Positions 46,402 through 49,846 of a stretch of DNA of 64,000 bases are shown one piece after another (position 1 is the stretch's first letter; every line of letters starts with the position of its first letter). The notes under the pieces were generated by a model. The model ran no database searches, was not told the DNA's origin, and saw only the letters and a list, made by a program, of their open reading frames with translations. Source of the DNA: Candidatus Amesbacteria bacterium (lineage in GTDB: Bacteria > Patescibacteriota > Microgenomatia > CAZETR01 > Amesbacteraceae). The translations under genes and the position numbers were made by a program. Where the stretch lies: contig CAVTQH010000002.1 of NCBI GenBank assembly GCA_963736875.1, positions 5,294 through 69,293 of the forward strand. Direction: 5' to 3'.

Positions 46402-48621
46402 ATGCCTCTGCGCCGTATTTTTCTTCTTCTGATTTTTGTAATCACCCTGCTTATTACTCCCCTGCGTGTCTCTGCCCAATCGCGCGATTGCTGTACCAAC
46501 CCCGGAGGCAGAGCCTGTGGCGCAGAATGCGACCTTGATGATGACAGTGATCCCCCTGACGGTTATCCGGATTCCGGCCATGACGCTGACTGCTACACCG
46601 GCAAAATATCTCCGTGTGATGCCGGTACCTGGCGCTGTAATTTCGACCCCGCCCACAGTATTTATCATGGCCATTGTATCAATGCCAACTTCTGCCCCGC
46701 TCCGCTTGGAGCCTGTATCCCCACCCCCCCACCCACTCCCACCCCCCTCCCCCCACCTCTCCCTAATCCCGTACCGATGGACAATTTTAGACCGCTTAGG
46801 TACCCATGCAATAGAATTGCCGAACCTGAATATCATCCCCTCCGTCCCTACCCCGGTTCTCCCTGCGATCCCCTGATTCCCCGTAAAGTTCCTGAAGCTC
46901 CGGTTTCCACCGACCCGGACAAAATGTACCTGACCTACTTCTGCGGCAAATCCCTGAATGTCTCCGGCGTTGATCTAAGCCTCGATGTCGTCCGAATTTG
47001 TGGCATACCCGTTATTCCCAGCCCCATACCCCTCCCCTATGATTCCCTTCCCGGCATGGTTGAACCGGAATGGGAATCTATTCACTACCGCTGTGACAAC
47101 ACCTCCACCGACATTTGCTATGTCAAAAGGATTAACTGGGATCTGGAATTTGATCTTTCCCCCGCCCAACTTCCCATTATGGGTAATACTGAGGTTAACT
47201 TCGCCGACGTGATTAAAGTCAACGGCTATCTCAGCTGGTATCTAAACGGCACTATTTTTCAGGCGGAACAACTCCCTTTAAGTGGCACTGATCCCGCTGA
47301 CTCAAGACGTATTACCACCTATTCCGGACCGTTAAACAAACTTATTCCCAAGTTATGGAGTGACGAGCTCAAACATACCCTTTATTCCAATAATGTCGGT
47401 GCTGACTATCATGATTATCTCATTGCCTGCCAAAGAGATATCGATTATGCATACGTCCGCGACGCTCTAATTCAGCTTCTCACGAGTATTTTTGGAAACA
47501 TTTTTGATGTGATTCGGATTGCCGGCATTCTTTTAAGTAACGGCTGGGAATTTATCGGCGAAGTCGGGAGAGCATTGGGGGATATTTCTAGAGCAATTAT
47601 CAACGGCGCAATTCATATTCCCCCGGCATCCGGTGATATTGCCCAAGCCGCTCAGATTTTTATAGGCCACGGCCTGACTGTTCTCGGCAACAACCTTGGA
47701 GACGTCGAAACTCTCCTCAATTTGGGACAAGATATTATTAATAATATCGGCTCAGTGCTTCAGGCTTTCAGCCTCAATTTAATCGAATCCTGCTCCACTA
47801 GTGATGACGAGTGGCGTTTAAGCGACATGGCGGCCAATGATTGGGAACGAGGTCTGCCTTATGTCCCCTACAGTACCCTGGAAGACACCACCGGGGAGGT
47901 GACTGTGAGTGTTATTCCGGCAAACCAGCCCGTATCTCCGGATATTGATGGCATAATTTTGTCCATATCGCTCCGGATAGATGCCCCGTCTGACTCCCGG
48001 CTTTATTTCCCCCACCTAAGGGCTGCCCTCGCTCTTTCTGAAATGCTTTCCGGTACTTACCGGCCTCTCATGACCCCTACTCCTGCTGTCAGCTCTTTAG
48101 ACCAACAACTTGTCAGCCAAAGAATTACCCAGCATCAAGGACAACCTTGGATTGTTCCTGGCGGTTCAGATGACACCATCGTCCAGATCGCCCGGGAATA
48201 TCCGAACAGCCTTCGGATTACCCGCAATACCGAAGTCCGGGAAAACGCTCCCGCTCCCACCCCTCTTTACAATGCCGACAGGCTCTGTGACTTGGTAAAA
48301 GTCCGCACCAACCGTGGCGATACCTTAAAACCTGGTCCTAACCCTCTTCCTGTCGGAACCAAATCAATAAATGCCACTCTTACCTACTATCAGTTAATGC
48401 GTTATACACCAAGACTGGCCATCCAGTGTGCCGGACGCGCTTGTCCTACTCCCAACGGCACCGGCCTCTGTGTCAACGATCCTTGTGCCGACAGAGGAGA
48501 TGTGTGCAGCCTGACTAATCCCACCCAGTGCTGCACCGATGGACTCCATGGCGGATATGACACTGCTGAAGGCGATTGCCCTTTTGAACAGGAATGTGTC
48601 CACGCTGATGCGGAATTCTGA
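46402..48621 (+). CDS. large secreted Cys-rich, Pro-rich protein (candidate pilus-associated adhesin/surface component)
   Basis: Signal peptide MPLRRIFLLLIFVITLLITPLRVSA. N-terminal region with many paired cysteines (DCCTNPGGRACGAECD...CYTGKISPCDAGTWRCNF...HCINANFCPAPLGAC). Pro-rich linker TPPPTPTPLPPPLPNP. Cys-rich C-terminus. Confidence 0.5.
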   Translation: MPLRRIFLLLIFVITLLITPLRVSAQSRDCCTNPGGRACGAECDLDDDSDPPDGYPDSGHDADCYTGKISPCDAGTWRCNFDPAHSIYHGHCINANFCPAPLGACIPTPPPTPTPLPPPLPNPVPMDNFRPLRYPCNRIAEPEYHPLRPYPGSPCDPLIPRKVPEAPVSTDPDKMYLTYFCGKSLNVSGVDLSLDVVRICGIPVIPSPIPLPYDSLPGMVEPEWESIHYRCDNTSTDICYVKRINWDLEFDLSPAQLPIMGNTEVNFADVIKVNGYLSWYLNGTIFQAEQLPLSGTDPADSRRITTYSGPLNKLIPKLWSDELKHTLYSNNVGADYHDYLIACQRDIDYAYVRDALIQLLTSIFGNIFDVIRIAGILLSNGWEFIGEVGRALGDISRAIINGAIHIPPASGDIAQAAQIFIGHGLTVLGNNLGDVETLLNLGQDIINNIGSVLQAFSLNLIESCSTSDDEWRLSDMAANDWERGLPYVPYSTLEDTTGEVTVSVIPANQPVSPDIDGIILSISLRIDAPSDSRLYFPHLRAALALSEMLSGTYRPLMTPTPAVSSLDQQLVSQRITQHQGQPWIVPGGSDDTIVQIAREYPNSLRITRNTEVRENAPAPTPLYNADRLCDLVKVRTNRGDTLKPGPNPLPVGTKSINATLTYYQLMRYTPRLAIQCAGRACPTPNGTGLCVNDPCADRGDVCSLTNPTQCCTDGLHGGYDTAEGDCPFEQECVHADAEF

Positions 48622-48883
48622 CTGTGTACCCTCCTTGGATGGGTGTGTAGACGATCCGGCTACCGGCCGTCGAGTCAAATCTATACTTAAGCTGTGCGCT
48701 GCAGAGACGGCTCCCAAGATCCGACTAGTCTGCTGCGGTCCCCAGGAAGATTCTGTAACGGATGAATATTGTGATCTTTCACCAGGTTGTCCTTATTTCT
48801 TCACCGATCCGGTTATTGTCGAACTTATTGCGGAACTATGCGCAGAGGGACTGTGTATCAGATACTGTGTGATTGGCACGTAG
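48539..48883 (+). CDS. Cys-rich ORF overlapping the end of 46402..48621 in another frame (possible frameshifted continuation)
   Basis: CVPSLDGCVDDP...LCAAETAPKIRLVCCGP...YCDLSPGCPYF...LCAEGLCIRYC; same Cys-rich character as the upstream ORF. Terminates at TAG 48881-48883. Confidence 0.3.
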   Translation: MDSMADMTLLKAIALLNRNVSTLMRNSDCVPSLDGCVDDPATGRRVKSILKLCAAETAPKIRLVCCGPQEDSVTDEYCDLSPGCPYFFTDPVIVELIAELCAEGLCIRYCVIGT

Positions 48884-49846
48884 AGGAATTGTGGGGTGGT
48901 CACACCAGCGGCCCAATCCTCCCCATTCTGCCCTGCCTGGCCTGACAGGGCACTTAGATCCGCCGCCCGGACCAACGTCTTTACCAAAACTCCTATTGTC
49001 GAAAAGCTTTATGATCTATTGATATACCAGCCCCAGTCACTGCTCCGCCGCTGGCTACCCAAACTACCCCTAAGTGCCACCAGCGCCTCTACCCTTTTAA
49101 CCGGTAAGGATTCTACCGTTCCCGTCAGTACCTCTGTTAATTATACCGGCACTACAGACCAACTATTTAACCCGCGGGTTACGGCAGGCCGGGGTGGTGG
49201 AGGTTCCCTGTATTTTCCCCACCTGGGTAGTCTGTCTGATTACCTTCTGGGTTATCCCAATGGTGAAAATCTTAATCTTCAGCGCCTCCTTCGCCCCAAA
49301 GGTTTTATTGGCCGTGTCGGTATCGATAATCTCAGTGGTGTCATCAACTGCAACACCAATGTACCGGATCAATCCATCTCCTGCGTTGACAGAGCTAATT
49401 ATATTGATGTTGCTGAAAGGTGGACCAGCATGCCGGAAGGTACCCATGCCGAACTGTGTTTTAACGATGTCGTCTACCGGGCCAATGCTGCCGGTGTCAA
49501 TCCTGGTATGTCCCTTCTTGTCTGGCTTAATGAATCAGACGCCAGTAACTACGACTGGAGAACTCCGGTTGAAGACTTTGGTATCCATACGGGGCAATAT
49601 AACAACCCCAACGATTTCAACACCCAAATTACTGGTCATCTGGTCAATATCCCCCTGATGGCTTCCAGATGTGCCTCCGAACTGTCCGCGTGTGGCGGTA
49701 ACGACGCTTGTCGAGCCCACATCTTCGGCGCCCTTTACCTCACTGGAGACAGTTGTACCCCCAATGCGGCGGATATCGCTTACGGAAACGGTCTCATGGA
49801 GGTGTGGTCTTGGATAGGTGGCGGCTGCTCCTTCCCCTTCCCATAA
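48884..49846 (+). CDS. hypothetical secreted protein, in frame with 48539..48883 across a single TAG
   Basis: Open frame resumes immediately after the TAG at 48881-48883 and runs to 49846. Cys-containing C-terminus (CASELSACGGNDACRAHIF...DSCTPNAADIAYGNG). Confidence 0.35.
   Translation, partial: RNCGVVTPAAQSSPFCPAWPDRALRSAARTNVFTKTPIVEKLYDLLIYQPQSLLRRWLPKLPLSATSASTLLTGKDSTVPVSTSVNYTGTTDQLFNPRVTAGRGGGGSLYFPHLGSLSDYLLGYPNGENLNLQRLLRPKGFIGRVGIDNLSGVINCNTNVPDQSISCVDRANYIDVAERWTSMPEGTHAELCFNDVVYRANAAGVNPGMSLLVWLNESDASNYDWRTPVEDFGIHTGQYNNPNDFNTQITGHLVNIPLMASRCASELSACGGNDACRAHIFGALYLTGDSCTPNAADIAYGNGLMEVWSWIGGGCSFPFP

Follow-up and report, generated by a model that had tools for sequence, protein, structure and literature searches.

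A secreted-protein gene beside a patescibacterial pilin array is probably interrupted by assembly indels

Introduction

Why does a large secreted protein, encoded directly behind an array of pilin genes, appear in three pieces? The question is raised by positions 46402–49846 (plus strand) of a 64,000-nt stretch of Candidatus Amesbacteria DNA (contig CAVTQH010000002.1), here called the window, whose positions serve as coordinates throughout; the source genome, labelled G000, comprises 5 contigs and 998 kb. An earlier note, made from the letters of this DNA alone, described a cysteine-rich open reading frame (ORF) with a signal peptide that ends at a frameshift, a second ORF in another frame that stops at a TAG, and a third in which that same frame is open again. 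All three are present where the note had placed them: ORF1 at 46402–48621 (frame 1, 739 aa, with a TGA stop at 48619–48621), ORF2 at 48539–48883 (frame 2, 114 aa with 10 Cys, from an ATG at 48539 to the TAG at 48881–48883) and ORF3 at 48896–49846 (frame 2, 316 aa), where the frame is reopened right after the TAG of ORF2. Frame 2 is already open from ~48510, upstream of the ATG of ORF2. The ORF1 product contains 28 Cys and 75 Pro, and its N-terminus resembles a signal peptide, MPLRRIFLLLIFVITLLITPLRVSA, followed by QS.

The note left assembly error, pseudogenisation and recoding undistinguished. Our comparison with relatives and a genome-wide census of frame changes indicate that the frameshift and the TAG are very probably indel errors of sequencing or assembly, and assembly indels are now strongly favoured, with recoding disfavoured.

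Results

The pieces align, end to end, with single proteins of related bacteria. A search with ORF1 as query returned 63 homologs (labelled P00xx here), mostly of 950–1,230 aa. The nearest, P0002, is 72% identical and maps onto the window by tblastn in two blocks, residues 1–604 onto 46777–48612 in frame 1 and residues 605–1009 onto 48614–49843 in frame 2, the latter with 66% identity overall and near-identity from the motif CPAWP on. This match is collinear over both interruptions and has no gap, which places the three ORFs in line with one protein. On its own contig (L001 which, like L059 and L060, carries a homolog of the gene), the P0002 reading frame continues further upstream, as far as a signal peptide, and so amounts to a single ORF of ~1,138 aa. 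Across 16 same-family genomes the homolog matches contain no internal stops, and wherever a single open frame holds the entire gene, its length is 953–1,556 aa; stops occur only in G000. Gene order is conserved as well: L001, L059 and L060 each show SpoIID, the pilin array, this gene, a gene for a protein of 510–601 aa, a large gene on the opposite strand, PrgI, a TraC-like gene and VirB4. The proposals that the ORFs join into one extracellular, Cys-rich protein of ~1,150 aa, and that this protein directly follows the pilin array, are thus borne out by relatives that have one open frame at the same position and the same order of genes. Judged by this homology, the region encodes a single protein, predicted to be secreted, whose conceptual product has ~1,146 aa under either anatomy of the break considered below.

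Alignment with homologs also suggests where the reading frame is lost. Piece 1 (46402–48618, frame 1, 739 aa) runs from a Cys-rich region at the N-terminus through a Pro-rich linker and the conserved core into the beginning of a Cys-rich linker. Within this linker, homologs read HADA, then three residues (NLY, EFW or DYF) and then Cys, and P0002, P0003, P0012 and P0008 have no stop there. In the window, HADAEF in frame 1 is followed by DCVPS in frame 2, which points to a +1 change from frame 1 to frame 2 at 48613–48621 (GAA TTC T GAC TGT). We regard this first shift as firmly and securely placed by the aligned motifs, and the TGA at 48619–48621 would then be its by-product. Piece 2 (48620–48868, frame 2, 83 aa) belongs to the variable Cys-rich linker; it reads DCVPSLDGCVDDP...VCCGPQ...LCAEGLCIRYC and aligns with P0002 and P0012 through the pattern C..P....C.DP..G....CA...P...VCCGP.

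Beyond piece 2, the motifs expected from homologs occur in three different frames. A consensus common to 15 homologs consists of Y-C-[DE]-W, a few residues and G-H-x-x-P-[ND]-P-P-[HYF], placed before an invariant CPxWP..R.LRSAAR block. The window presents these elements in turn as CDWHVEELWGGHTS in frame 1 (48868–48909), PNPPH in frame 3 and CPAWPDRALRSAAR in frame 2 from 48929, which suggests three further frame changes within 65 nt. The first of them (48866–48870, frame 2 to frame 1) would lie within TGTGT, between the IRYC of frame 2 and the CDWHVEE of frame 1, and is followed by piece 3 (48871–48909, frame 1, 13 aa), DWHVEELWGGHTS, which is similar to CEWHDEELGH of P0015, CTWEIVEEGH of P0003 and GHTATPNPPH of P0012. 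The next (48910–48911, frame 1 to frame 3) would fall in AGC GG CCC and lead into piece 4 (48912–48926, frame 3, 5 aa), the PNPPH that matches the consensus P-[ND]-P-P-[HYF] directly before CPxWP. The last (48924–48928, frame 3 to frame 2) would stand just ahead of TGC CCT GCC TGG CCT and open piece 5 (48929–49846, frame 2, 305 aa plus stop), which continues the core (CPAWPDRALRSAAR...LRPKGF) and ends in an all-alpha C-terminal head. A hidden Markov model (HMM) of the homolog stretch scored E 0.002 in frame 1, E 0.07 in frame 3 and E >0.5 in frame 2, and frame 2 read through the TAG (VIGT, the stop, then RNCGVVTPAAQSS) shows no likeness to homologs. Frame 2 is therefore probably not the ancestral frame between ~48869 and 48928, and the TAG at 48881–48883 would span two ancestral-frame codons (cac GTA GAG, encoding H V E). 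A frameshift-aware alignment to the distant homologs P0004, P0005 and P0013 was overfitted over the variable linker, and no shift was placed from it.

A break of this kind is not peculiar to this gene. For a census of frame changes, every ORF of 150 aa or more in the same-family genome G014 (1.0 Mb) was searched by tblastn against G000 and adjacent, collinear frame changes were counted; the reciprocal search, in which the counterparts of G000 ORFs in G014 were counted in the same way, served as a control. In G000, 75 of 497 conserved genes (~15%, or ~1 in 7) are affected, by 95 frame changes in all (87 of them distinct); the control has 3 in 538. Nonsense codons inside the alignments are not in excess, with 117 in G000 against 167 in the control; the earlier note had proposed a check for other in-frame TAG codons in conserved genes, and stops as a whole show no surplus there. 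Orthologs of gyrA, ileS (two shifts), gatB (three), ftsA (two), GAPDH, PNPase and PcrA are among those broken, and since a cell cannot live with such genes broken, the assembly must be wrong at them. Past a junction, the abandoned frame runs on for a median of 14 codons before a stop; the shifts are hence unlinked to stop codons, and stop-linked shifting of the Euplotes type was rejected for that reason. The direction of the shifts is biased 3:1 towards +1 (73 +1 and 22 +2), and no shared k-mer or slippery motif was found at 38 tightly placed +1 junctions, the best of 1,024 5-mers reaching z ~3. The shifts lie in clusters, with 16 of 82 gaps shorter than 500 nt, which fits four shifts in a linker of 320 nt. 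G000 is highly contiguous, yet its completeness score is only 91%.

Shift density was uneven among contigs, with 45 on C2, 40 on C4 and only 7 on C3, in 194 kb. Two further conserved genes on the minus strand of the window look frame-broken. At ~31743–33344, a G014 protein of ~500 aa matches 31749–33182 and also 31758–32168 and 32700–33164; at ~33614–34088, a 175-aa protein matches 33614–33886 in frame −2 and 33864–34088 in frame −1.

Stop codons in G000 are used in the ordinary way. Among 375 ORFs whose homology reaches the C-terminus, TAG terminates 63 (17%), TGA 125 and TAA 187, and no CUA or UCA anticodon occurs among the 42 tRNAs. The prfB gene (C2:364566–365600) is an uninterrupted frame of 361 aa that lacks the classical programmed frameshift. 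A prfA-like gene (C4:203544–204530, minus strand) scores 306.8 bits, below the family cut-off of 423, and covers model positions 46–348 in an open frame of 312 aa; it is probably another indel-broken gene. A longer match at this locus, obtained with the prfB profile (203556–204530), contains a TAA. TAG and TGA are ordinary stops in this genome.

The protein under study belongs, by full-length collinear homology and a shared gene neighbourhood, to a large family of predicted secreted proteins encoded at type IV secretion system (T4SS) loci in Candidate Phyla Radiation (CPR) bacteria, with 708 clusters (50% identity) at E ≤1e-3 and 493 at E ≤1e-30. None of the three ORFs matches a Pfam or NCBIfam model, even at E ≤10. 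The architecture runs from the signal peptide through the N-terminal Cys-rich region, the Pro-rich linker, the core, the Cys-rich linker and a second core segment to the C-terminal head. A Sec signal peptide is predicted from the translation at 46402–46476 (plus strand, 25 aa), with cleavage inferred between ...RVSA and QS, and the AlphaFold model has a helix at residues 2–18, within it. The core contains near-invariant motifs such as HPLRPYPGxPCDPLIPR; its second segment reads CPxWP...LRPKGF and aligns with P0022 and P0028. The Cys-rich linker, the site of the frame shifts, varies greatly in length (~50–170 aa in homologs). The core model (739 aa; predicted local distance difference test score (pLDDT) 69, predicted template modelling score (pTM) 0.62) found no fold match in the PDB, nothing scoring better than E 1.0, and a profile search against PDB sequences gave chance-level matches only, to phage tail-tube proteins (E 0.08–1).

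The C-terminal head was modelled as all-alpha with pLDDT 70–89 over the last 165 aa. Its 15 best PDB matches in Foldseek are all MltE or goose-type lysozymes, at non-significant scores (E 0.35–1, root-mean-square deviation 8–13 Å), and it carries a conserved WLNESDASNY motif, whose WLNES part might fit a GH23-type catalytic Glu-Ser, a lead only. No hydrolase domain is detectable in the window protein by sequence (Pfam, E ≤10). In other family members, the heads on the same core are swapped: GDSL esterase, GH5 cellulase and NAGPA phosphodiester glycosidase domains occur at the N-terminus, and SLT_3 lysozyme-like and M23 peptidase domains at the C-terminus, in the position of the window's head. 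Members that swap heads are P0016, P0024, P0028, P0029 and P0022.

Directly upstream of the gene lies a pilin array (42514–46359, plus strand) of about ten VirB2-like T4SS_pilin genes, along which the pilin proteins of L001 map at 42.5–46.4 kb; both pilins tested (45556–45975 and 46036–46359) match PF18895. Downstream, PrgI/VirB3 (PF12666) is found at 55163–56131 and the VirB4 ATPase at 56796–58649 (NF045971, 369.6 bits, above the cut-off). With VirB4, PrgI/VirB3 and VirB2-like pilins clustered, this is a patescibacterial T4SS locus, similar to mating pair formation type FATA (MPF-FATA-like). Such loci have been described as related to the conjugation machinery of monoderms, with pilin arrays of 2–11 genes located near the origin (PMC12102498). 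The window shares with that description the VirB2-like pilin array (PF18895), PrgI/VirB3 and VirB4, whereas the large Cys-rich protein that follows the array in the window is absent from the published list of components.

The gene immediately downstream (49910–51446, plus strand) is also broken, split into 49910–50407 and 50328–51446 by a +1 shift at ~50385. Its 510-aa counterpart on L001 matches the window with residues 1–155 in frame 2 and residues 155–462 in frame 3, and the window has one extra base, in CAAGACAGGT, compared with CAAG-CCGGC in L001. Relatives encode here a polytopic membrane protein of 510–601 aa; the product has no Pfam match and, by its position, could be a divergent VirB6, a component reported to be scarce in Microgenomatia (PMC12102498). 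The VirB4 gene, too, stands in two parts (56128–56799, 223 aa, and 56796–58649, 617 aa), and we considered an indel here and rejected it, as the same piece recurs in most of the relatives searched, where the frame is open over 590–674 aa and covers only model positions ~181–735. At the loci of two homologs, a separate TraC-like gene (PF26593) of 248–249 aa lies directly upstream of this VirB4 piece.

Discussion

A reading of the three ORFs as separate genes with starts of their own would be conceivable in so far as every ORF has a possible start codon; the homology, however, passes gap-free through both junctions, all relatives have one ORF, and the ATG of ORF2 falls within a conserved stretch at the C-terminus of ORF1, which leaves this account scarcely credible. 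For a single gene, the most economical account of the ORF map is one +1 frameshift, real or erroneous, followed by one nonsense TAG, with frame 2 true throughout 48620–49846 and reading VIGT-x-RNCGVVTPAAQSSPF, and tblastn did align P0002 through the TAG in this frame. Yet in that very alignment the homologs have nothing in common with the 20 codons on and about the TAG, and C-D-W-H-V-E-E..GGHT in frame 1 and PNPPH in frame 3 occur exactly where they are expected, before CPAWP. We therefore consider the single shift with a nonsense codon unlikely, and an anatomy of four shifts, with the TAG as cac-GTA-GAG read out of register, probable. The break that the earlier note reported thus stands, its count of one frameshift and one TAG probably does not, about four frame changes taking its place, and the lone in-frame TAG, lying outside the ancestral frame with the homolog motifs in other frames, is no longer supported as a feature of its own.

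Whether the cell itself might shift frame or read through is a separate matter. In the programmed +1 frameshift of prfB, ribosomes shift at CUU UGA C, where a slippery P-site codon and a Shine-Dalgarno-like stimulator assist. A programmed shift at UUC-UGA-C in the window, combined with read-through or reassignment of TAG, would share with prfB a UGA followed by C, which is a weak termination context, and GAC (Asp) as the next codon in the +1 frame. The site differs from that of prfB in its lack of conservation, of a slippery P-site codon and of a stimulator: all homologs are plain ORFs with neither shift nor stop, tRNA-Phe on UUC would be unable to re-pair on UCU (GAT GCG GAA TTC TGA C), and upstream there is no Shine-Dalgarno-like element, with no GGAGG/AGGGGG-like sequence 3 nt before. 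Moreover, TAG is a normal stop here, no tRNA-CUA was found and release factor genes are present; the homolog motifs are absent from the frame that contains the TAG and present in others; and shifts throughout the genome share no motif and lie away from stops. Recoding is accordingly a very improbable explanation. True decay of this secretion-locus gene and its downstream neighbour by indels in the lineage is also improbable, though less strikingly so. In its favour, the two broken genes adjoin each other and show five frame changes in ~1.8 kb, the changes are concentrated in a variable Cys-rich linker that probably tolerates mutation, and the three shifts on the downstream side cancel out, as would real mutations that compensate one another. 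On the other hand, 15% of conserved genes are similarly broken, including gyrA, ileS and ftsA, so that breaks in this assembly are uninformative on real decay; nonsense codons are not in excess, the 3.1 kb of the gene that flank the break share 66–72% identity with the ortholog and show no further lesion, and the remaining T4SS genes of the locus (pilins, PrgI, VirB4) are intact.

Indel errors account for these observations best, and they resemble reported cases of gene-fragmenting indels in long-read or under-polished genome and metagenome assemblies (Kastor, PMC12007338; PMC8103633), in which conserved genes are likewise split into adjacent ORFs that lie in different frames, by indels only, with no nonsense excess, in local clusters and with essential genes hit. 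Several points weigh against this explanation. G000 differs from those cases in that its indels are not enriched in homopolymers (17 of 44, with 18.4 expected), and the 73:22 bias to +1, taken with this missing homopolymer link, does not match the classic signature of nanopore data. A density of four shifts in 320 nt lies well above the genome average of about one per 5–6 kb of conserved coding sequence, and the evidence for the three shifts downstream consists of short motifs within a linker that is itself variable, as the HMM scores given above reflect. The protein database holds no intact copy from the same species, the nearest relative being the 72% identical P0002. Finally, we infer error, as opposed to real mutation, as the source of the indels from the genome-wide excess of frameshifts, the collinearity and the normal use of stops, rather than from seeing them directly. 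Under the indel-error explanation, small errors of sequencing or assembly would interrupt the reading frame of a secreted protein of ~1,146 aa, one +1 shift at 48613–48621 creating the TGA and three probable shifts in 48866–48928 bringing the TAG into frame, and the organism would most likely make the full-length protein by ordinary translation with the standard code.

The main value of this result is one of caution: since ~15% of conserved genes in G000 are frame-broken by indels, calls of frameshifts, split genes, pseudogenes or recoding on this genome are suspect and need read support. While the flagged break itself is ordinary, the underlying protein family is moderately interesting, as ~700 clusters of predicted secreted proteins, fixed beside the CPR pilin array, have neither a family model nor a structural match.

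What the intact protein might do is suggested by its surroundings and its relatives. Exported by Sec, it would probably act outside the cell together with the pilus, breaching or binding an envelope. Neighbourhood and domain swapping suggest that it would be associated with the pilus on the outside and display a head able to degrade envelopes, in a VirB1-like role or in breaching the envelope of a host. The pilus-tip adhesin proposed in the earlier note, of VirB5 or PrgB type, finds no echo in Pfam or NCBIfam matches to known T4SS adhesin families or in a PDB fold for the core, and the swappable hydrolase domains of homologs suggest a role in degrading envelopes no less than one in adhesion. 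The wall hydrolases of monoderm T4SSs that fill the VirB1 role (PrgK of pCF10, TraG of pIP501, CwlT) offer a parallel, being large secreted proteins from T4SS loci; members of this family carry SLT_3, M23, GDSL, GH5 or NAGPA domains, and MltE or goose-type lysozymes make up the best structural matches of the window's head. These matches are non-significant, however, and the window protein has no hydrolase domain detectable by sequence and a core with no PDB match.

A survey of patescibacterial T4SSs detected no PrgB-type adhesins and found VirB1 homologues to be mostly unassociated with virB4 (PMC12102498), which makes the family a reasonable candidate for the missing part that contacts the host or breaches its wall. 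More tentatively, the intact protein may represent an undescribed, conserved T4SS component of Microgenomatia: a Sec-exported scaffold with a novel fold, always placed after the pilin array, whose interchangeable envelope-degrading heads would act at the pilus in binding or breaching the host envelope during epibiosis. We think this a possibility worth naming, if not a probable one.

The window as a whole seems to lie on one replichore. On the plus strand, guanine-cytosine (GC) skew is markedly and persistently negative over 1–64000, between −0.03 and −0.48 per 2-kb bin, regardless of the strand on which genes are encoded.

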